DNA from: Minisyncoccia bacterium
GTDB lineage: Bacteria > Patescibacteriota > Minisyncoccia > Phycocordibacterales > PALSA-1337
Direction of reading: 5' to 3'
Length of the DNA stretch: 15,362 nucleotides
NCBI GenBank assembly: GCA_038211765.1
Contig: JBBQVG010000022.1
Location: 1 to 15,362 of the forward strand
The position numbers and the translations under genes were made by a program. How positions within the stretch are numbered: position 1 is the first letter of the stretch; each line of letters opens with the position of its first letter. The notes under the pieces are model-generated. The model was not told where the DNA came from, did not search any database, and was given only the letters and a program-made list of their open reading frames with translations. Below, one piece after another: positions 5,359 to 15,080 of the stretch.

Positions 5359-5631
5359 TTATTTTACGGCGTCCTTGAGGGCCTTTGCGGCGCGGAACTT
5401 CGGAACCTTCATGGCAGGGACCTTGATGGCCTCACCTGTACGAGGGTTGCGAGCTTCACGGGCTGCACGCTGTTTTACTGAGAAGATACCGAGACCTGCG
5501 ATAGAAACCTCATCACCCTTCTTCAAGGAGTCGATGATGCTGTTAATCATAGTCTCGACCGCCTGCTCAGCCTGAACTTTCGTTCCGCCGAGAACTCCAT
5601 GAACTGCGTCAACAATACTTGCTTTGTTCAT
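5359..5631 (-). CDS. hup: HU family DNA-binding protein
   Basis: 90-aa ORF with MNKASIVDAV...GDEVSIAGLGIFSVKQRAAREARNPRTGEAIKVPA, the canonical HU/IHF arm sequence. Confidence 0.95.
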   Translation of the reverse strand: MNKASIVDAVHGVLGGTKVQAEQAVETMINSIIDSLKKGDEVSIAGLGIFSVKQRAAREARNPRTGEAIKVPAMKVPKFRAAKALKDAVK

Positions 5632-5839
5632 TTGTGTGTAATTAGTACTAATAATCTAGGCTCTAATACTGGTCTCGGTCCCTCAACCTCGATTCCGAGG
5701 TCTCGGGATCAAGTTGCGAACCATGAGGATAATTATATAGTAAGCCATTTTAAGCACAATAGGGCTGTAAAGATTGACAACATTTCTTTTTTCATGGTAT
5801 CTTTAGGCCATTCTATTAATTAATACAATTTTACGACCT

Positions 5840-6097
5840 ATGGCAAAAGAAAATTCTGCGTTTATGAAACCTATGACTATAAGTTCGGATCTGGCCGCAG
5901 TTGTCGGCGCAGGCCCTATGCCTCGATCTGAGGTGGTCAAGGCTCTCTGGGTATATATCAAGAAGCACAATCTCCAGGATCCCAAGAACAAGCGCAATAT
6001 CAACGCCGATGAAAATCTCAAGAAGGTTTTTGATGGCAAGGCAGTGGTCAATATGTTCGAAATGACCAAGCTGGTGTCAAAGCATCTGACGAATTAA
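5840..6097 (+). CDS. SWIB/MDM2 domain protein
   Basis: 85-aa ORF. PMPRSEVVKALWVYIKKHNLQDPKNKRNINADENLKKVF matches the SWIB domain pattern. Confidence 0.85.
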   Translation: MAKENSAFMKPMTISSDLAAVVGAGPMPRSEVVKALWVYIKKHNLQDPKNKRNINADENLKKVFDGKAVVNMFEMTKLVSKHLTN

Positions 6098-6118
6098 GAA
6101 AGATTTAGTTCGCTTACA

Positions 6119-6148
6119 AAAATACCGAAGGAATTCGGTATTTTTTGT
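6119..6148 (+). terminator. Intrinsic terminator after the SWIB gene
   Basis: ATACCGAA (6122-6129), GGAA loop, TTCGGTAT (6134-6141), then a T-run. Confidence 0.75.
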
Positions 6149-6283
6149 TGGGGCTCTATTTCCTTGTAAGTCTTGGTACCTTCAAGATCATTTCACCGAT
6201 TGCGTCACGGTAATATTGACTGTAGCTACAGAGACACGGATAGTCCATTCCATACCATTATTCTTCCGATGATTGAGGATTTT

Positions 6284-6313
6284 AAGCCGCCTTTTGGCTT
6301 GGGCGGTTTTTTG
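6284..6313 (+). terminator. Second terminator-like hairpin plus T-run upstream of the TrmB-family gene
   Basis: AAGCCGCC...GGCGG stem followed by TTTTTTGTTTT. It sits 135 nt after the previous terminator with no ORF in between. Confidence 0.5.
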
Positions 6314-6342
6314 TTTTCGCCTCTTTGTGATAATCTGTACTC

Positions 6343-7101
6343 ATGTTAGAAAAATATCTCCAAGACATCGGCCTGAGTGAAAAAGAATCCGTCATCTACA
6401 TTTCCCTCCTGGCCGTAGACAATAGTTCTGTACTCGATCTGTCCAAGAAAACCAAGCTCAATCGTTCTACCACCTACGTTATTCTCGAATCTCTGGCTAA
6501 AAAAGGCTTGGTGACAGAGACGACGGTTGGTAAAAAGACTCATTACCAAGCAGAACCCCCAGAAAGACTCGAGACTTATGTTGAACAACGCAAAATCTTG
6601 CTTGAGGAACAATCAAAAAAACTCAAAGACATTATCCCTCAGATAAAAAGTGTACAGAGGGAGGGTGGTGAGAAGCCGATTGTGAAGTATTTTGAGGGAA
6701 AAGATGGTTTGATAAGCCTACATGAAGAATTTTTTCTTGGTCAAAATGAAGATGCGATAAGCTATCTAATATATTCAAAGGATTTAGTTGATGAAATATT
6801 TTCTGCGACTGAAAGGGAGAAATACAGAAACATGCGATTGGGTAAAAATATTAAGTCAAAAGTTCTTTACACCTACCTAAATGGAACAATTCCTACAAGT
6901 ATTGACGGAGAGAGAGTAAAAATTGATGGTACCAAATATCCTATACTTTGTGATATCTCAGTCTGTGAGGATAGAGTCAAAATTGCAATTCTAGGTAAAA
7001 AGCTTTCGGGTATTTTCATTAAAAGTAAAGAATTTGCTGAAACATTCAGGAGTATCTTTAATATTGGGTTTGACCAAATGCAGAAGGGGGCCCAGTCGTA
7101 A
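6343..7101 (+). CDS. TrmB family (winged-helix) transcriptional regulator
   Basis: 252-aa ORF. The N-terminal LQDIGLSEKESVIYISLL...LSKKTKLNRSTTYVILESLAKKGLV is the TrmB HTH signature. TGTGATAAT (extended -10) lies 9 nt before the ATG, suggesting a near-leaderless mRNA. Confidence 0.8.
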   Translation: MLEKYLQDIGLSEKESVIYISLLAVDNSSVLDLSKKTKLNRSTTYVILESLAKKGLVTETTVGKKTHYQAEPPERLETYVEQRKILLEEQSKKLKDIIPQIKSVQREGGEKPIVKYFEGKDGLISLHEEFFLGQNEDAISYLIYSKDLVDEIFSATEREKYRNMRLGKNIKSKVLYTYLNGTIPTSIDGERVKIDGTKYPILCDISVCEDRVKIAILGKKLSGIFIKSKEFAETFRSIFNIGFDQMQKGAQS

Positions 7102-7797
7102 TACGACCAGGCCCCGAACTAACCGAATCGGAACTTCAGATCGTTGTAGCCTCTTGGCTTTTTTTGCTTATCAACAATGAATGAACTTTGATCTAGACGA
7201 TCTCCGAAGTCCGACGTGCATCGCATTTGCGACCCGTACGATCCAAGCAATTAGGATCGATTATTTGCTTGATAGAGACCCATATCCTGAGTCAACATCT
7301 TAGCTTTCTTTTGACTTAATCACACATACTAGCTTTCCTTTCCTTACTTCTCCCAACTTTGAAGGGCACAACCGAATGGTTTCAATACCGTCTTCTAGTG
7401 CCTTATGAGGTCCACCAGAAGACGGTACTTACTTGCATCTAGTCGCTCATAAGTCCCTCCTTATTTCTGGTTGAGAGCCATGAATGGCACATTTTAAGGC
7501 CAATATCTGCCACCACCCACTTCTGAAACAAGTTTAGCAGACCAAAATCAAAATGTCAAGTTTTTATACCATTTTAGGCAAATAAGTAAGGTTTCAGGCC
7601 ATAAAACCATGAATATAGGCATATTTAGTTATTTTATCTGTTTTTTATTGTTTACAGAAAATTTTAATTAGAAATTATATATTTATATTGTCATAATATT
7701 TTATTAAATGTTATTATTTAATACCTTATTTATGATGAGAATAACCATATTTATAGGCATTATTTTGATACTAAAGGTTATATAATGTTATTTATAC

Positions 7798-7825
7798 TTG
7801 ACAGATTTATGGAATGTGCTAGACT
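7798..7825 (+). promoter_or_regulatory. Strong sigma70-type promoter with extended -10
   Basis: Perfect TTGACA (7798-7803), 16-nt spacer, TGc-TAGACT (7817-7825). A ~240-bp very AT-rich tract (UP-like) lies immediately upstream. Confidence 0.6.
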
Positions 7826-7831
7826 CTGCAA

Positions 7832-8697
7832 CAGAACAAAAGATGTGTCCAGGGAAGGCACTGCTATCCCGCTTCGATCGGAGCGCCATGTCTCAATAAA
7901 AATGACGGGCGCTCGGAAAGGAGCGGGATGAGGAACCTTAAAAATGCACATCATGAGTGATGGCACGACCATGACCCACGCCGAGTGGCTGGCATGGTTG
8001 CGCGGGGAGTAGTAGTACTCCCTATGCTGTGACTGCAGTAATGTAGCGCACGGAGTATGGGTATCAGCTTGGCAAAAGAAATGATACAGCAGACCCACTG
8101 CGACAAGGGAAAGGTATCCATACCTACACAAATGGAGATGCACGCAGAGTTAACAACGCAAATAATTCTGCGTGCATATAGGGGGGAACTCATGTTCCCC
8201 ACTTTATCAGGTTCGTTTTGGAAATGAGCCTGCAAAGTGTCCGTCAGTTAGAAAAAGTAGTTCTTTACAATAGTGTCTGCACTATCTTGCATCTAAAGTG
8301 ATGCGTAGATGCGAGATAGTGCAGATACTTCGCAGGTATCCGAGCACGCTGTGTGACCCGGTACAACCCGGCGTATAGTAACCTCTTTTTCACATGGATG
8401 AGAGGTAAGGGCGCACGGAGTTCCCGTGACCACCCGAAAAGTAGTGAGTGCGAATGAAAGCTTCAGCTTTCATTGGCCCGGAAAGCTCAGCATTGGTGCT
8501 GAGTAACCGTTTGTTTCGCCACATCGCGCTTCTACCAGGAAGCGGAGGTTGTGGGAAACATCTCATTGCATGGGTGCTGTGTACACCCGAGACATGCTGG
8601 AGCATGTTCTCACTGCGAGTTTTTCGGTTCGCTCATTCAACCCAAATGAGCATCTTATTGAATCAATGACATGAAGTCGTTGATTCAAAGGAATTTG
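7832..8697 (+). ncRNA. Candidate large structured non-coding RNA / highly structured leader (family not recognised)
   Basis: No credible ORF. There is a dense series of perfect local helices. Examples: 7866-7873/7922-7929 enclosing 7881-7887/7908-7914; 7968-7973/7993-7998; 8005-8011/8016-8022; 8138-8148/8167-8177; 8183-8189/8194-8200; 8273-8295/8306-8328; 8381-8386/8401-8406; 8454-8461/8466-8473; 8486-8492/8497-8503; 8527-8532/8539-8544; 8592-8597/8602-8607; 8658-8670/8676-8688. Boundaries are approximate. Confidence 0.5.
8273..8328 (+). other. 23-bp hairpin immediately after the first GTTCTTTACA box (8260-8269)
   Basis: 8273-8295 pairs with 8306-8328 (21 Watson-Crick plus 2 G-U pairs) around a 10-nt loop. 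Confidence 0.7.
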
Positions 8698-8708
8698 GTT
8701 CTTTACAT

Positions 8709-9014
8709 ATGAAAACTTTACTATTGTTCGTCTTCGCGGCATTTGTGCTCGTCGGATGTGTTCCGGAGCAAAGCGCACCCCGATCGCTTACCTATTTTCC
8801 AACTAATAATTGGCAGGTAGTGAGTGTGACGGAAGGTGAGGTGGTGGTCGAAACAAAATCGACCAACTTGCCCCTGCGATACAGGGTAGTCCGAGCTACT
8901 CCTGTTACGCCACTGACCAACGGTCAGTTTGCGAGGGTTGAGCTCACTTTGAAACGCCATCTGTACAACCCTGACGAGGTTGCCACAGCTCGAGCGTTTC
9001 CGGCGGACCACTGA
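8709..9014 (+). CDS. Small putative lipoprotein
   Basis: 101-aa ORF. MKTLLLFVFAAFVLVGC is a signal peptide with an L-V-G-C lipobox. The ATG is directly preceded by a GTTCTTTACA box (8698-8707). Confidence 0.6.
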   Translation: MKTLLLFVFAAFVLVGCVPEQSAPRSLTYFPTNNWQVVSVTEGEVVVETKSTNLPLRYRVVRATPVTPLTNGQFARVELTLKRHLYNPDEVATARAFPADH

Positions 9015-9110
9015 GGCGAGACCATGGATGTCTATAAACTCCCGTAATACTCTGGGGAAGCTCCAGGGCGCCTAACAAGCGGAAACTGTTGGGATGATGC
9101 AAATCGTCTC

Positions 9111-9163
9111 TCTGTTCTCGAGATGAGTATCTCGACTGACGAGTCTGAAAAGACGAAAACAGA
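9111..9163 (+). ncRNA. Hammerhead ribozyme, type III (HHR-1), predicted cleavage after C9117
   Basis: Stem III TCTGTT (9111-9116)/AACAGA (9158-9163), then C17. Stem I TCGAGA-TGAGTA-TCTCGA (9118-9135). Core CUGACGA (9136-9142). Stem II GTCT-GAAA-AGAC (9143-9154). Core GAAA (9155-9158). Confidence 0.85.
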
Positions 9164-9190
9164 AACGTTCTTTGAGTTAATAAAGCATTT

Positions 9191-9241
9191 CACCTCCGCT
9201 TTTTCTATTTCATTATTTTTGGAATAAAGAAAGCGGAGGTG
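9191..9241 (+). promoter_or_regulatory. Hairpin sequestering the Shine-Dalgarno sequence of the 9247 ORF
   Basis: CACCTCCGCTTT (9191-9202) pairs with AAAGCGGAGGTG (9230-9241). GGAGG (9235-9239) lies in the 3' arm, 7 nt before the ATG at 9247. Confidence 0.6.
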
Positions 9242-9246
9242 TAAAA

Positions 9247-9429
9247 ATGCCATTCTGCCGTCCCAAAGGGTCGGAGCTGGTTGCGATCATTGGTCGTAGC
9301 CTTCTCAGTAGTTGGGTGCACTCAAGCGTTGGCAGGCTGAAATCTGTCTTGGTAACCCCAGTAAAGAAGAAATTCTTTACACTTGAGAGTCGCAACTGCA
9401 AGCCGTATGAAGAGTACCTCTTCATTTGA
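9247..9429 (+). CDS. Hypothetical small protein (60 aa)
   Basis: The ORF is preceded by a strong GGAGGTG SD at optimal spacing. No family recognised, and an internal hairpin is present, so coding status is uncertain. Confidence 0.4.
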   Translation: MPFCRPKGSELVAIIGRSLLSSWVHSSVGRLKSVLVTPVKKKFFTLESRNCKPYEEYLFI

Positions 9430-9537
9430 ATCATTAGCAAATATCGATGGTAGTCCATCGGAGATGATTCACGGAAGGGAGGTGTTGGGGTAATTCAAAA
9501 CCCTGACACCTCCTATCATCCTTATTTAGGAAAATTT

Positions 9538-9696
9538 ATGGGGATGGGAGCAAAGTCTTTCAAAACCACTGGAGGGTCAGGGGGCAAGAAAGGTCACTCC
9601 AACATGGTTCATTGGACGTTCACTGAGGAAATCAAAGTGATCGCCAAGAAGGCACGCAGGATGGCCGATCGAGCTCTCTCCCGTCCGCGGGAGTAG
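9538..9696 (+). CDS. Hypothetical small basic protein (52 aa, below the ORF-track cutoff)
   Basis: My translation: MGMGAKSFKTTGGSGGKKGHSNMVHWTFTEEIKVIAKKARRMADRALSRPRE, ending at TAG. AGGA lies 6 nt upstream of the ATG. Confidence 0.3.
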   Translation: MGMGAKSFKTTGGSGGKKGHSNMVHWTFTEEIKVIAKKARRMADRALSRPRE

Positions 9697-9972
9697 GAAG
9701 CAATAACACCTGTAAAATGGTTGCCACAAAATCCGGTGGTGTAAATCAAGGTAAAAAGTTTTGTCCCCATTTCGTAAAATGGAGAGCCTAGAGGAAGCAG
9801 AGCCTCACGCAGTCGGAGCCGTATGGCTAGTATAGAGGTAACAGAGATCGACACTCTATTGCGTCCGAAGACTTGGTTGGCTAGTCTCCAACCCTAAGAT
9901 CGAGCACGGCCCAGTCGTGGGATACTCTAGTGGAAGTAACTAAAATCCACTCTTGATGACATTGTCATCAAG

Positions 9973-10024
9973 TTCTGTCTCAGAATGTAATTCTGACTGA
10001 TGAGCTCAAAAGAGCGAAACAGAA
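9973..10024 (+). ncRNA. Hammerhead ribozyme, type III (HHR-3 by order of discovery, second in position), predicted cleavage after C9979
   Basis: Stem III TTCTGT (9973-9978)/ACAGAA (10019-10024), then C17. Stem I TCAGAA(T)-GTA-(A)TTCTGA (9980-9996). Core CUGAUGA (9997-10003). Stem II GCTC-AAAA-GAGC (10004-10015). Core GAAA (10016-10019). Confidence 0.85.
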
Positions 10025-10035
10025 GTTCTTTACAA

Positions 10036-10091
10036 TCATGTTCATAGTATTCTGAATATTTATATAGGTACTTAGAATACTATGAATATGA
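10036..10091 (+). promoter_or_regulatory. ~20-bp hairpin burying the first two in-frame ATGs of the 10082 ORF
   Basis: 10036-10055 pairs with 10072-10091, with a 13-bp perfect core TTCATAGTATTCT/AGAATACTATGAA. The ATGs at 10082 and 10088 lie in the 3' arm. Confidence 0.6.
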
Positions 10092-10258
10092 AAATGAAAG
10101 TACTGTTTATCAGTATCGCCGGGCTCTGGGCAGTTGCTGCTTGGGCGAGTTACGAGCCCCACGTTCTTTTGATGAACGTGGCGAGTGTGTTGGGATTGCA
10201 GCTAGGTATCATTTATTTGGTACTTGAGCGGCGGCACACGAGGCGCGTGACCAAGTGA
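10082..10258 (+). CDS. Small hydrophobic protein, two predicted transmembrane helices (58 aa, below the ORF-track cutoff)
   Basis: My translation: MNMKMKVLFISIAGLWAVAAWASYEPHVLLMNVASVLGLQLGIIYLVLERRHTRRVTK, ending at TGA. It has two ~19-aa hydrophobic stretches and a basic tail. Confidence 0.45.
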   Translation: MNMKMKVLFISIAGLWAVAAWASYEPHVLLMNVASVLGLQLGIIYLVLERRHTRRVTK

Positions 10259-10298
10259 GGGACTTGAATACCCCTTCTCCATCCAGTGAGAAACTGGA

Positions 10299-10349
10299 TT
10301 GCTCTCGAGATGTGTGTCTCGACTGATGAGTCCGAAAGGACGAAAGCAG
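10299..10349 (+). ncRNA. Hammerhead ribozyme, type III (HHR-2), predicted cleavage after C10304
   Basis: Stem III TTGCT (10299-10303)/AGCAG (10345-10349), then C17. Stem I TCGAGA-TGTGTG-TCTCGA (10305-10322). Core CUGAUGA (10323-10329). Stem II GTCC-GAAA-GGAC (10330-10341). Core GAAA (10342-10345). Confidence 0.85.
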
Positions 10350-10364
10350 AGTGTTCTTCGTAAA

Positions 10365-10426
10365 TTGATGTTCATAATAATCTTATTTTTGAATATCATC
10401 AGAAATTAGATTATTATGAACATCAA
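10365..10426 (+). promoter_or_regulatory. 19-bp perfect hairpin burying the start codon of the GNAT gene
   Basis: TTGATGTTCATAATAATCT (10365-10383) pairs with AGATTATTATGAACATCAA (10408-10426) around a 24-nt loop. The ATG at 10416 is inside the 3' arm. Confidence 0.65.
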
Positions 10427-10844
10427 AATCATCTCTGCATCTGTAGCTACTCACCAGCTATTCAGTCAACACGCATACATCAAAGCTGATCTCTGGTTCC
10501 CAACTCTGTTTGGAGGGGATCGTATCTCATGTTGTGATGAGGCTGTGGTCGTTGAAGTCAGTGGTACAATCGTCGCTTTGGCGACTATCGCTCCAGAAGG
10601 AGAAATGACCTCAGGTGTTCCCACTATTGTTGGTCTATATACAGTACGTGGTCACCGGAAGTCCGGATACGCACGCCTGGCTTTCGAAGCGGCGGTTAAG
10701 AGGGGAATCGAACGTGGGTTTACCAAGATCCGCGTTGACACGCTCTCTAAGGGAGCTTTGAGAATCACGAAAACGATGCCAATGGAACTGTCACAAGTTC
10801 TAGAGGTTGGCCTCCAGATCCTTCTTTGTGGATTCCTGGAATAA
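10416..10844 (+). CDS. GNAT family N-acetyltransferase
   Basis: 142-aa ORF. VRGHRKSGYARLAFEAAVKRGIERG fits the GNAT motif A (R/Q-x-x-G-x-G/A) acetyl-CoA binding segment. Confidence 0.7.
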   Translation: MNIKIISASVATHQLFSQHAYIKADLWFPTLFGGDRISCCDEAVVVEVSGTIVALATIAPEGEMTSGVPTIVGLYTVRGHRKSGYARLAFEAAVKRGIERGFTKIRVDTLSKGALRITKTMPMELSQVLEVGLQILLCGFLE

Positions 10845-10955
10845 TTTTGCGAAAGCAAGAGGTGCTCACTACCTATAACAAAGTGTGAGCTGTTCGGCGA
10901 AACTGGTTGGTCACCAGTGTGCCGCTTCAGTGAAAAAAGCGGGAGGAGGATGTGC

Positions 10956-11147
10956 ATGAAAAAGCACTCTACTTCTCGGAAGAATGTTGAGCCCGTTACC
11001 GACGCCATCGTGGATAAGGGAATGAAGCTTCTCAAAAATCCGAGAGTGCCTAAAAAGATCAAGCGGCAATTGGTTGAAGCTGCATTTCACGGAGTTCAAA
11101 CCGGTGAAGTCAGTTTCTCCCAGCTCTGCAAGATCTCGAGGGCATGA
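10956..11147 (+). CDS. Hypothetical small protein (63 aa from the ATG at 10956), possibly a truncated HTH protein
   Basis: GGGAGGAGG SD (10941-10949) lies 6 nt before the ATG. Sequence: MKKHSTSRKNVEPVTDAIVDKGMKLLKNPRVPKKIKRQLVEAAFHGVQTGEVSFSQLCKISRA. It ends where a helix-turn-helix would normally continue. Confidence 0.4.
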   Translation: MKKHSTSRKNVEPVTDAIVDKGMKLLKNPRVPKKIKRQLVEAAFHGVQTGEVSFSQLCKISRA

Positions 11148-11297
11148 CTGATGGACAGACATCCGAAGGATGCGCAGGGCTCGGCAGATAAGAGTCCTAA
11201 CCTTCGATTCAGAAGCGCAATTGTTGTCACCTTTGTAAAGCGTGAGCCTCGTATGCAGTACGTTGGGAAGAGTGACTTCCTGAGAACAAATAGTCAC

Positions 11298-11340
11298 GAA
11301 AAAACCGCACTCCATTATTGACGTGCGGTTTCATCATTTT
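11298..11340. terminator. Bidirectional intrinsic terminator (end of the + strand block and of rny)
   Basis: A-run, AAACCGCAC (11302-11310) pairing with GTGCGGTTT (11323-11331), followed by T-rich sequence. Confidence 0.7.
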
Positions 11341-11351
11341 TATACTTATGT

Positions 11352-12884: not shown

Positions 12885-13111
12885 ATGCGGAATGATCCGC
12901 CTCTAGGGACTAGGGTGATAGTAACGTATGAGATGTTGCGAGCTTCAGAGTCGAGAAATCGGAGAAAACAGCCAAGGATGGTAGGGTAAATCGGAAGTGC
13001 TGAAGAAGTAAGGTAATCATAAGTTGGTGTCACGCAGGTCTGCAAGGCGAAATCAATAATTTAAATTTGGTAACACTTGTAATATACAATAAATGAGGGT
13101 TATTTGTCTAC

Positions 13112-13309
13112 TTACCAAATAATTGATGATGAGTGCCGACGCGGTGTAACAAGAAATCCTTCGTATTCATGTTTGAGCTTATGGTTGTTGAGAAGTGGAT
13201 CAAATTCATTAAGTGTAAAAATCCTTATACGTTCATTAACTTTTTCACAGATCTCCTTTTGGAGCCTCTTCCAATCTTTTGTGAATAGTGATGACCAATG
13301 AATTATCAT
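13112..13309 (-). CDS. RelE/ParE-superfamily type II toxin (short, atypical C-terminus)
   Basis: 65-aa ORF. FTKDWKRLQKE...RIRIF..NEFDPLLNNHKLKHEYEGF resembles RelE/YafQ-like toxins. It lies 17 nt downstream of an antitoxin-like gene. Confidence 0.5.
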   Translation of the reverse strand: MIIHWSSLFTKDWKRLQKEICEKVNERIRIFTLNEFDPLLNNHKLKHEYEGFLVTPRRHSSSIIW

Positions 13310-13326
13310 AAAGTAGGTAGGACATA

Positions 13327-13611
13327 TTAAGAGTTTAGGGCAGCAATAAGTTCGTCCACCGAATGAGCCACTGGTAATTTTCCCTCCCTGTATTCTTTTT
13401 CTCCTTTTAATAAGGACGCAATTGTTTTCTTGTTTAGTACGTATTCTTCTTCTGTAGTCAGGCTCACCCCTTTATTACGCACAAACTGGCGAAGAAGGGC
13501 ATTGACGAGCGTGCCGAGAGGCAACCCGATCTGTTCGGCGGTTTTCTGGGCGGCCTGCTTGAGATTCTTGTCGATTTTGACTGTGAGTAAGGTTTTAGTA
13601 TTTGTAGTCAT
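13327..13611 (-). CDS. RelB/DinJ-like (ribbon-helix-helix) antitoxin
   Basis: TKTLLTVKIDKNLKQAAQKTAEQIGLPLGTLVNALLRQFV is an RHH/DinJ pattern. I prefer the ATG at 13611 (MTTNTK...) over the ORF-track start at 13659. Confidence 0.6.
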   Translation of the reverse strand: MTTNTKTLLTVKIDKNLKQAAQKTAEQIGLPLGTLVNALLRQFVRNKGVSLTTEEEYVLNKKTIASLLKGEKEYREGKLPVAHSVDELIAALNS

Positions 13612-13671
13612 ATACCCAAGTATATACTTCGGTATGATGGTGTCAATAAAAATCAACATACGTCAGGATCA

Positions 13672-14700
13672 ATGTCTACTGGTAGGTTTCGTAATGAAGC
13701 ATACAATTGTGGCATGGATGAAAAGGGTAAAAATATATTATTGTACGCATCACCTGATGGGGCACTCAAGTTGGAGGTGTCGATTGATGGCGAGACGGTT
13801 TGGCTGTCACAAAAGCAGATGGCGGAGCTTTTTGATTGCAGTGTCTTTAATATCAATGTGCATTTAAAGAATGTGTATAAAGAGGGCGAATTAGTGGAAA
13901 GTCGAACTATTGAGGAATCCTCAATAGTTCAAAAAGAAGGAGGGCGGACTGTTTCTCGAAGTACTATGTTTTATAACTTAGACGCCATTATTTCCGTCGG
14001 ATACCGTATCAATTCCATAAGAGGCACACAATTTCGCATCTGGGCCACAAAAAAGCTGAAAGAGTACATAGTCAAAGGCTTTGTCCTCGATGACGAACGG
14101 CTGGCTCAGGGCAAGAAATCAGATTACTTTGATGAGCTTCTCGAGCGAATCCGTGGTATCCGCGCCAGCGAACGCAATTTTTATCAGAAGATTACTGATA
14201 TCTATGCCACAAGTGTGGATTACAACAAGAATATAGAGGACACCCGGAAATTCTTTGCAGGAGTGCAGAACAAGATTCACTATGCAGTTCATGGCAAGAC
14301 TGCAGCAGAAATAATTGATTCTCGAGCTGATGCAAAGAAAAAGTATATGGGACTGACCAATTTCAAAGGGAAACTCATTAAACAATCCGATATTTCCATC
14401 GCCAAGAATTATTTGAATGAAAAGGAATTGAAACAACTTAACCTGATAACCACGCTCTATCTCGACTTTGCAGAATTGCAGGCAAGCAACGAACGTCCGA
14501 TGACTATGAAGGAGTGGGTCAGTAAACTGGATGATTTCCTAAAGTTGAGTGAAAAGAAGGTCTTGAAAGGTGTTGGTACGATGAGTAAAAGCGTTGCGGA
14601 CAAGAAAGCGCACGCAGAATTTGAGAAGTACCGCAAAGAGAAGGATAAAAAATATGCTTCAGATTTTGACAGGCAGATGAGGAAGTATGTGAAGAAGTAA
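13672..14700 (+). CDS. rhuM: RhuM family (virulence-associated) protein
   Basis: LYASPDGALKLEVSIDGETVWLSQKQMAELF...YNLDAIISVGYRINSIRGTQFRIWATKKLKEYIVKGFVLDDERL matches the RhuM family. The true start may be the ATG at 13714 (MDEKGK...). Confidence 0.8.
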   Translation: MSTGRFRNEAYNCGMDEKGKNILLYASPDGALKLEVSIDGETVWLSQKQMAELFDCSVFNINVHLKNVYKEGELVESRTIEESSIVQKEGGRTVSRSTMFYNLDAIISVGYRINSIRGTQFRIWATKKLKEYIVKGFVLDDERLAQGKKSDYFDELLERIRGIRASERNFYQKITDIYATSVDYNKNIEDTRKFFAGVQNKIHYAVHGKTAAEIIDSRADAKKKYMGLTNFKGKLIKQSDISIAKNYLNEKELKQLNLITTLYLDFAELQASNERPMTMKEWVSKLDDFLKLSEKKVLKGVGTMSKSVADKKAHAEFEKYRKEKDKKYASDFDRQMRKYVKK

Positions 14701-14759
14701 CTAGTAATCGGGCAAATAAAAAAGGCAACCGTTGGATGTGGTCACCATTTAATTGCGAA

Positions 14760-15080
14760 CTAGAACTTTCTTCTGACGAGACAAAGAAGGGCTTCTTCTT
14801 GAGGGGGAATATCATCGGCCCTTCCTTTGGGATGAGTCCAGTAGTGCCCTGGTGTGAAATTTAGTGACCCTTCCCCGACTATCTGCTCGAGCTCCGTGAA
14901 TGTTGGAAGCCGTCCTCCGTCATGGTTTAAAACAACCTCAAACAAGTGTTCACTTTTGACGACTCCCATGTGAAATGTTTCCAATGGCAATGGTCCAATT
15001 TTATTCATACTGTTCCTTTCTACATCAACAAGGGTTCCTTTCGTTTGCCAAAAATTACCATTTAGGGTAGATTGTGTCAA
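14760..15080 (-). CDS. Hypothetical protein; weak resemblance to the DUF1566-type RLPT..EL motif
   Basis: 106-aa ORF. An alternative start at 15008 is preceded by [18 protein letters not shown] is only a weak family hint. Confidence 0.4.

Follow-up and report, generated by a model that had tools for sequence, protein, structure and literature searches.

A putative modular RNA head on a hammerhead-punctuated transcript in a Patescibacteria chromosome

A 15,362-nucleotide (nt) stretch of a Minisyncoccia (Patescibacteriota) chromosome (contig JBBQVG010000022.1 of assembly GCA_038211765.1; hereafter the window, numbered along its forward strand) contains, just downstream from a near-consensus promoter at position 7798, almost 0.9 kb of hairpin-dense sequence in which an initial annotation found no credible open reading frame (ORF). 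What is such a sequence for? Two answers had been put forward: a large ornate non-coding RNA, possibly of a new class, or a very large structured leader belonging to the ribozyme operon that follows. Our comparison with related loci bears out the second. We favor, with moderate confidence, the view that the segment heads a cassette transcript processed by ribozymes, that this head is structured and modular, and that it carries a new ornate RNA domain, here called the core. Coordinates of all features are collected in Table 1.

The propensity of the region to fold is exceptional. The 875 nt between positions 7826 and 8700 have a predicted folding energy of -379.6 kcal/mol, as compared to -272.7±8.1 kcal/mol for dinucleotide shuffles (z = -13.3). 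Thus, the hairpin density reported in the initial annotation passes the shuffled-sequence control proposed there, and the inverted repeats listed are present. The reverse complement folds at -330.2 kcal/mol, that is, 49 kcal/mol less stably, which would be expected if the plus strand relied on G·U pairs. A scan of the whole window with cmscan and the Rfam 15 models returned four tRNAs and nothing else at the gathering score. At E ≤ 10, the interval 7600-9400 gave no match to GOLLD, ROOL, OLE, HEARO or raiA, and the interval 7798-8708 gave no hit of any family. Searching five homologous loci at E ≤ 1 turned up only tRNAs, hammerheads and microRNA or snoRNA matches due to chance. The lack of a match to these RNAs, noted in the initial annotation, is borne out. 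The 7798-8708 segment also lacks a hammerhead, as judged from the absence of both a catalytic core motif (CUGAUGAG...CGAAA) and an Rfam match.

Relatives of the locus were collected in several ways. RNase Y of the window shares 73-86% identity with genes from 80 metagenome-assembled genomes that carry the label Patescibacteria, Paceibacterota or Taylorbacteria, and these 80 loci (L002-L081) were used as the comparison set for gene order. One of them, L055, has a related TrmB gene followed by an AT-rich spacer and a promoter; beyond these come a non-coding stretch of about 870 nt (z = -11.5) and a lipoprotein gene. Further loci were obtained through homologues of the lipoprotein, through a metagenome scan with a 21-base pattern from the core and through homologues of TrmB; two of the six hits of the pattern scan (L092 and L093) were discarded as chance matches in high-GC coding DNA. 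The final set comprised nine distinct loci: the window, L097 (identical to L090 and L098 and close to L091), L094, L095, L103, L055, L087, L099 and L101. All nine share the same layout: TrmB gene, AT-rich spacer, promoter, a gene-poor interval of 1-1.6 kb, then scattered small ORFs.

All the promoter elements named in the initial annotation were verified. A scan for promoter-like sites found six, against 4.3±2.2 in shuffled sequences, which is not significant alone; such matches are common in AT-rich DNA. In all nine loci, TTGACA is invariant at the -35 position, the -10 motif reads TAnAnT and the two are separated by a 16- or 17-nt spacer of variable sequence, at a homologous place. A single sequence proves little; the case for the promoter rests on this phylogenetic footprint across nine loci. 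Transcription would start near position 7832. Measured from the promoter, a conserved 29-mer of the core lies 526-534 nt away in three loci; in L055 the interval is 195 nt, in L087 992 nt.

Alignments and profile searches resolved five modules in the region: a 5′ stem-loop (module A), a small ORF, an array of about eight local hairpins (module B), the core, and a pair of hairpins preceding the lipoprotein gene (module D). The core is the most elaborate. Its nhmmer profile matches TrmB-linked loci only, and it is predicted to fold stably alone (z = -8.4). In an alignment of six loci, 89.8% of the cells of the 68 consensus pairs can pair, versus 76.2±1.3% in shuffles, and 37 of the 68 pairs are changed on both sides, versus 18.0±2.9 (none of 500 shuffles reached 37). 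Controls in which the partners were slid gave 10-16 doubly changed pairs. Within the helices, cells with G·U outnumber those with A·C (46 versus 11). The hairpin at the 5′ side of the core, P1, has 12 of its 22 pairs doubly changed and 95% of cells paired. Immediately downstream begins a helix whose two strands lie some 280 nt apart; it is found in the minimum free energy fold of all eight loci and shuts a multi-helix domain. Cores fall into two types. The closing helix is invariant among type 1 cores; in type 2 cores it reads GGAAGAG/CUCUUCC (L101) or UGAAGAG/CUCUUUG (L099b), at the same place after a conserved CACU, with five of seven pairs doubly changed and 95% of cells paired. Inside the domain lies a second long-range helix whose sequence differs in most loci.

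The base of P1 has two potential partners. The sequence GAUAC (8324-8328) can pair upstream with GUGUC (8273-8277), forming the P1 base, or downstream with GUAUC (8336-8340), forming a small hairpin, P2, around the 5′ strand of the closing helix. Both pairings are 100% kept in nine sequences, each through two-sided changes in L099 and L101. This dual pairing suggests a switch or a folding intermediate.

In L099, two core paralogues lie in tandem between two hammerheads (6700-7760; type 1 at 6783-7190, type 2 at 7296-7670). A 185-amino acid gene call overlapping them (6928-7485) is probably spurious.

The flanking modules are conserved to different extents. In module B, the RNAalifold consensus from five loci has 63 predicted pairs, 21 of which show two-sided changes in one locus or more. 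One helix (8181-8200) stems from the inverted-repeat search and is not part of this consensus. Two of the hairpins carry GNRA loops in relatives (GUAA, GUGA or GAAA in one, GAAA in the other); the loop of the first is GUAG in the window. Module D has 12 of 23 pairs doubly changed among eight aligned copies. Thus, the covariation among homologues that the initial annotation had called for is present in module B, in the core and in module D. Module A is a different case. The two-tier helix described there exists and is unusually stable (z = -5.6 for 7832-7943); however, no homologue was found in any of 104 loci, and the hairpin would probably be a lineage-private stabilizer of the 5′ end.

A different conserved element of about 100 nt occupies the place of module A in L097 (6440-6575), in L094 (minus strand) and in L099 (6455-6570). 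Its outer helix covaries (GGUUCCUUCG/CGAAGGAACU, AGUUGCUUAUUA/UAAUAAGCAACU and GGUUGCUUCAAAGUG/CACUUUGAAGCAACU) and encloses the conserved words GUGAGACUC, CCCC, CGGGA and GAGCAUAU.

Do the modules form a single RNA? If the whole stretch of about 870 nt were one large ornate non-coding RNA of the GOLLD, ROOL or OLE kind, with a single global architecture, its extreme fold stability, conserved helices, GNRA loops and long-range helices would all find an explanation, and so would the order of small ORF, module B, core and module D, which is collinear in the window, L097 and L094. Yet the modules also occur separately and in other orders. L055 is without small ORF and module B; in L087, a cassette consisting of a hammerhead, an ORF and another hammerhead is inserted between module B and the core, splitting the stretch; in L103 a hammerhead stands between the core and module D. 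Moreover, the first 110 nt are the ones without a homologue, a conserved ORF accounts for 69 nt, none of the covarying helices spans two modules and no Rfam model matches. With at least five modules, one of them a small ORF, found in varying combinations and orders, the single-RNA proposal of the initial annotation does not stand in that form, and we regard it as quite improbable. The region does resemble GOLLD, ROOL, OLE, raiA and HEARO in extending over hundreds of nucleotides, in its many covarying helices and conserved unpaired nucleotides and in its accessory or variable context; unlike those RNAs, it is modular, forms part of an mRNA-like cassette transcript instead of having a gene to itself, and has been seen in one Paceibacterota-like lineage only.

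The claim that the stretch holds no credible ORF needs amending in one respect. No long ORF is conserved on either strand, and the two minus-strand ORFs that had been dismissed (7778-8143 and 7951-8235) were rightly so: they are not conserved, and L087 has none there. The segment 7944-8012, on the other hand, is a conserved small ORF of 22 codons, predicted from its pattern of substitutions to be translated. Its orthologues encode MHIMNDGTTMTHEEWLAWLRGK (L097), MHVMSDGTTMTQVEWLEWLRSGG (L094), MHVMSDGTTMTHAEWLEWLGGN (L087) and MHIMSDGTTMTHDEWLAWLGGEGH (L101), and a divergent version, MVILSDGSVISWAEWLLIRGN, is preceded by a good Shine-Dalgarno (SD) sequence in L099; in each case a stop codon follows directly. 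Differences concentrate at third codon positions (12, 21 and 32 at positions 1, 2 and 3) and include GAT/GAC, ACG/ACA, CAC/CAT and CTG/CTC exchanges as well as a serine switch between AGT and TCT. The frame has no stops and 41% synonymous codon differences, as opposed to 4-37% in the other five frames; among all six, one antisense frame alone is likewise open with a comparable synonymous fraction. A plausible SD sequence precedes the ORF in the window and in L099 and is absent in the others. The ORF itself is missing from L055, L095 and L103.

Could the rest of the stretch hide an ordinary protein gene, a pseudogene or a gene with a reassigned stop codon? UGA is recoded in some lineages of the candidate phyla radiation (CPR), and reading TGA as sense does open plus-strand ORFs of 166-200 codons at 8320-9047. 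The lipoprotein, however, ends at a TGA precisely where its homologues end, and code 11 leaves the conserved genes of the window intact. No alternative reading of the stop codons opened a gene across the stretch, and alternative genetic codes were rejected, nothing consistent emerging from them. In a comparison of the window with L097 and L094, 7944-8012 is the sole ORF on either strand whose frame is conserved, and codon-like substitution is confined to those 69 of about 880 nt; elsewhere, substitutions in helices are compensatory, not codon-periodic. A hidden gene is hardly credible on these grounds, the small ORF being the part of that suspicion that survives.

The sequence downstream from the lipoprotein gene provides the context in which the modular head is best considered. 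Three type III hammerheads lie there on the same strand. Each has a complete catalytic core and three stems, and the scores are 29.1, 44.5 and 31.3 bits, where the gathering score is 48.5; a homologue in L095 scores 49.6 bits, above that threshold. They bracket ORFs at 9247-9429, 9538-9696 and 10082-10258 and precede a GNAT gene (10416-10844). Several same-strand hammerheads around single genes or short blocks are also found in L087, L099, L101 and L103. Altogether, hammerhead cores occur in seven of the nine TrmB-linked loci (none was detected in L055 and L097) and in the lipoprotein locus L088, and in just 3 of the 80 RNase Y-anchored loci. In the window, the sequence GTTCTT[TC] appears 5-8 nt after each hammerhead and is followed by a long hairpin (9188-9244, about 10036-10090 and about 10356-10425, ahead of the ORFs at 9247-9429 and 10082-10258 and of the GNAT gene, respectively). 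As we read the sequence, each hairpin appears to bury the SD sequence or the start codon of the next small ORF. The succession of ribozyme, boundary motif and start-site-sequestering hairpin thus looks like a repeated grammar. The same GTTCTTT motif marks the start of the core and recurs 4 nt before the start codon of the lipoprotein gene; there are five plus-strand copies within 7826-11350. An SD sequence, a promoter element and an integron core site were all considered as explanations of the motif, and none fits.

Comparison of L095 with L103 is instructive in this regard. L095 corresponds to L103 with a gap of about 520 nt, which takes away most of the core as well as a hammerhead; the lipoprotein gene is kept. 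This looks like an example of cassette loss at a boundary motif, as far as the two sequences tell. The junction, in L095 (6990-7010) relative to L103 (7050-7590), runs from GATACTTC|GCAGG to GCAGTTCTT, i.e. GCAG/GTTCTT.

A conserved structured motif, UCCCGUAAU ... CUCUGGGGAAGCUCCAGGGCGC ... AGCGGAAAC, lies just upstream of one subtype of hammerhead in the window (9030-9110), L087 (2425-2540), L101 (about 6445-6530), L099 (about 8115-8200), L095 (about 7770-7850) and L013 (about 18000-18110). It comprises covarying hairpins and matches no Rfam family.

Clusters of hammerheads flanking genes in long transcripts near integrases have been described, and they cleave in vitro (Perreault et al. 2011, PMC3088659). 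The arrays seen here are similar to those operons (PMC3088659) in that same-strand hammerheads flank small genes or blocks within one predicted transcript, in their varying gene content and in the presence of an integrase nearby in some loci: a tyrosine integrase gene lies 2-3 kb upstream, beyond TrmB, in L095 and L103 only. They differ from them (PMC3088659) in that the host is a Patescibacteria chromosome, in being headed by a conserved TrmB gene and promoter, in containing large non-coding structured modules, including the domain of about 360 nt, which that work does not describe, and in that the hammerheads of the window fall below the Rfam gathering threshold.

The mosaic organization could alternatively reflect a role of the hairpins as DNA, namely as integron-like recombination sites with a crossover at GTTCTTT, as a single-strand origin or as palindromic repeats. 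Cassette-like gain and loss with junctions at GTTCTT would agree with this, as would the single upstream promoter serving small promoterless ORFs, among them the GNAT acetyltransferase, and the tyrosine integrase of L095 and L103. Integron arrays likewise have one promoter, small promoterless units and structured boundary elements that are gained, lost and reordered; they also have an adjacent IntI and attC sites with RYYYAAC...GTTRRRY boxes. Here, by contrast, there is neither IntI nor attI, GTTCTTT does not fit GTTRRRY, and no integrase was found in the window or upstream of TrmB in L097, L099 and L101. Furthermore, the hairpins are unique sequences and not a repeat family, the excess of G·U over A·C is on one strand, and the GNRA loops, the long-range helices and the boundary elements, which are covarying hairpins and hammerheads with complete catalytic cores, are features of RNA. 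A DNA-level role is thus very improbable.

Another alternative is that the entire region is a giant cis-regulatory leader of the lipoprotein gene, with the small ORF as leader peptide, the core as sensor and the P1-base/P2 pair as switch. The stop codon of the small ORF falls inside the first module B hairpin in all orthologues; the GUGUC/GAUAC/GUAUC complementarity is kept through changes; module D, which includes a weak terminator-like hairpin (8631-8651), stands directly before the start codon; and the lipoprotein gene follows the leader in the window, L097, L055, L095 and L103. With trp- or erm-type leaders the region shares a short conserved ORF close to the 5′ end, the last part of which overlaps the next hairpin. 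Here, however, there is neither a terminator/antiterminator pair nor a run of regulatory codons, and the three loci devoid of the small ORF keep the rest. No terminator follows the small ORF in the interval scanned (7000-9600), where three terminator-like sites, none convincing, compare with 2.3 expected. The association with the lipoprotein gene is not strict either: in L087, L094, L099 and L101, other genes or a hammerhead come after the core, L095 keeps the lipoprotein gene without most of the core, and the gene has a short upstream region in L082-L086. Similarly, module D precedes unrelated ORFs in L087 (twice), L095 and L101. For these reasons we consider a dedicated leader unlikely, and give no more credit to its specific form, in which the core would sense a ligand, a protein or temperature and the switch would act on read-through or translation at module D.

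We return, then, to the modular head of a processed transcript. In this scheme, 7798-8708 would comprise the promoter and the first 880 nt or so of a long, highly expressed transcript beside the TrmB-like gene. The transcript would be assembled from cassettes, with modules tending to open with GTTCTTT and, in relatives, separated by self-cleaving type III hammerheads. Some modules would be small ORFs with the SD sequence or start codon hidden inside a hairpin, others RNA alone, and the two hairpins of module D would stand as a pre-ORF element before the lipoprotein gene. The core would fold autonomously, closed by its long-range helix, with a possible alternative pairing at the base. What follows it differs by locus (lipoprotein gene, other ORFs, second core or hammerhead), and it shows no constant link to the 5′ end of one gene family across loci. 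An autonomous function of the core is favored because it has its own boundary motif, its ends are brought together, it exists in two subtypes, its neighbors vary and a hammerhead lies at one side of it in five of eight loci. It would then be a self-contained RNA unit, not the regulator of one particular gene, and would persist in, or be freed with, fragments generated by ribozymes or an RNase; the main task of the other hairpin modules would be to protect and gate the processed RNAs. More tentatively, the core might represent a new class of autonomous ornate RNA, cut out by flanking hammerheads, with the P1-base/P2 switch coupled to the closing helix. Just as tentatively, it could be catalytic or a ribonucleoprotein scaffold, a non-coding cassette within a hammerhead array.

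Several points weigh against the scheme. The collinear order of the modules in the three closest loci allows a concerted cis role of the whole leader and makes it a serious rival. Nine distinct loci are available, and the covariation counts come from consensus structures predicted from the same alignments of 5-9 sequences, so that the numbers lean towards structure. A single lineage split, type 1 versus type 2, accounts for the covariation of the closing helix, and the inner long-range helix fares moderately in the shuffle control (per-locus P 0.014-0.95; helices of 5-6 base pairs arise by chance). In the window, no hammerhead flanks the core, the nearest being at 9116, past the lipoprotein gene; release of the core would there need another nuclease or may not happen. 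Finally, the start site, the co-transcription of the modules and their processing are predictions.

Table 1. Features of the promoter, the structured region and their surroundings in the window (bp, base pairs; nt, nucleotides; aa, amino acids; HTH, helix-turn-helix)
Feature	Position	Strand	Remarks
TrmB-like HTH regulator gene	6343..7101	+	Pfam TrmB E = 1e-13; syntenic upstream of promoter in 9/9 loci
Sigma-70-type promoter	7798..7825	+	-35 TTGACA (7798-7803), 16-nt spacer, extended -10 TGcTAGACT (TG 7817-7818, TAGACT 7820-7825)
Module A, 5′ stem-loop	7826..7943	+	two-tier helix 7866-7887/7908-7929; z = -5.6 for 7832-7943
Conserved small ORF, 22 codons + stop (predicted)	7944..8012	+	MHIMSDGTTMTHAEWLAWLRGE, then stop; orthologues with synonymous-type changes
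Module B, array of ~8 local hairpins	8002..8250	+	RNAalifold, 5 loci
Module B helices	8002-8027, 8028-8052, 8061-8087, 8090-8100, 8112-8125, 8138-8177, 8181-8200, 8201-8238	+	
Core, ~360-nt multi-helix RNA domain	8255..8630	+	z = -8.4 alone
GTTCTTT boundary motif at core start	8260..8266	+	
P1, 22-bp hairpin	8273..8328	+	12/22 pairs doubly changed; 95% paired
P2, alternative hairpin GAUAC-UUCGCAG-GUAUC	8324..8340	+	competes with P1 base for GAUAC
Closing helix, 5′ strand UUCGCAG	8329..8335	+	pairs with 8613-8619
Inner long-range helix	8441..8448 / 8562..8569	+	sequence differs in most loci
Closing helix, 3′ strand CUGCGAG	8613..8619	+	~280 nt downstream of 5′ strand
Module D, two hairpins	8631..8693	+	8631-8651 and 8652-8693; 8 aligned copies
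Second GTTCTTT boundary motif	8698..8704	+	4 nt before lipoprotein start codon
Small lipoprotein gene, 101 aa	8709..9014	+	signal peptide ending ..VGC; 10 homologues
Type III hammerhead 1	9116..9158	+	Rfam Hammerhead_3
Type III hammerhead 2	9972..10025	+	Rfam Hammerhead_3
Type III hammerhead 3	10303..10345	+	Rfam Hammerhead_3

The chromosomal setting of the array is itself variable. Proteins encoded in the window include a CCA-adding enzyme, RNase Y, a UPF0102 protein, the TrmB-like regulator, a GNAT acetyltransferase and a RhuM protein. In most relatives, the gene for an HU-like protein (window 5359-5631) directly abuts the RNase Y gene; in the window genome, the two are separated by about 5.5 kb (5800-11350), and the structured stretch falls inside this variable insertion. 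On the evidence of gene order, the site between the HU-like and RNase Y genes is a hot spot for variable DNA. The same spot holds other insertions of 1-5 kb in several relatives. A phage or plasmid origin was rejected: blastn against 50,697 phage records gave no match, no plasmid record matches either, and neither the TrmB gene nor the core motifs are present in IMG/VR. A link to defence systems was likewise rejected, since PADLOC reported for TrmB just generic similarity to HTH proteins and its PDC-S05 match concerns the unrelated RhuM gene. That RhuM-family gene (13672-14700), which matches the candidate defence family PDC-S05 with E = 1e-141, lies in a second genome-specific insertion (13000-15000). 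On the other side of the window, four tRNA genes (Arg-TCG, Gly-GCC, Pro-TGG and Gly-TCC) are found among small genes between 2718 and 4656, a stretch with several hundred apparently non-coding nucleotides and an order conserved in many relatives.

The spacer between TrmB and the promoter (7500-7800) is AT-rich (23% GC) and contains a direct repeat, AACCATGAATATAGGCAT / AACCATATTTATAGGCAT, at 7605-7622 and 7743-7760. Words resembling ..TATAGGCAT occur in the spacers of L055 and L087. The repeats are candidate operator sites for the TrmB-like protein.

The AlphaFold2 model of the lipoprotein is confident (predicted local distance difference test score 81.6) and shows a six-stranded β fold. No match with E < 0.1 was found in the PDB; weak, non-significant resemblances included some OB-fold proteins. 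The family is very small: a set of 5.8 billion proteins contains about 10 members.

The genomes of Patescibacteria are tiny and dense, and their regulatory and structural RNAs are almost uncharted. A search of the literature for hammerheads or structured RNAs in Patescibacteria or CPR bacteria turned up nothing relevant, and the large structured RNA and the hammerhead-punctuated operon are each the first that we could find for this group. Because the genomes are so compact, a low-coding stretch of 3-5 kb behind a very strong promoter is costly and probably important. If our reading holds, the locus contains a new domain of large structured RNA whose long-range helices are nested, together with a conserved micro-ORF, and reveals a cassette grammar in which a hammerhead, GTTCTTT and a start-burying hairpin precede an ORF or an RNA. 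Should the more tentative proposal also be true, the core would define a large structured RNA class specific to Patescibacteria, the first of its kind, and the array would exemplify ribozyme-delimited RNA cassettes mixing coding and non-coding units. The cassette grammar could explain the purpose of clustered bacterial hammerheads, a question standing since 2011.

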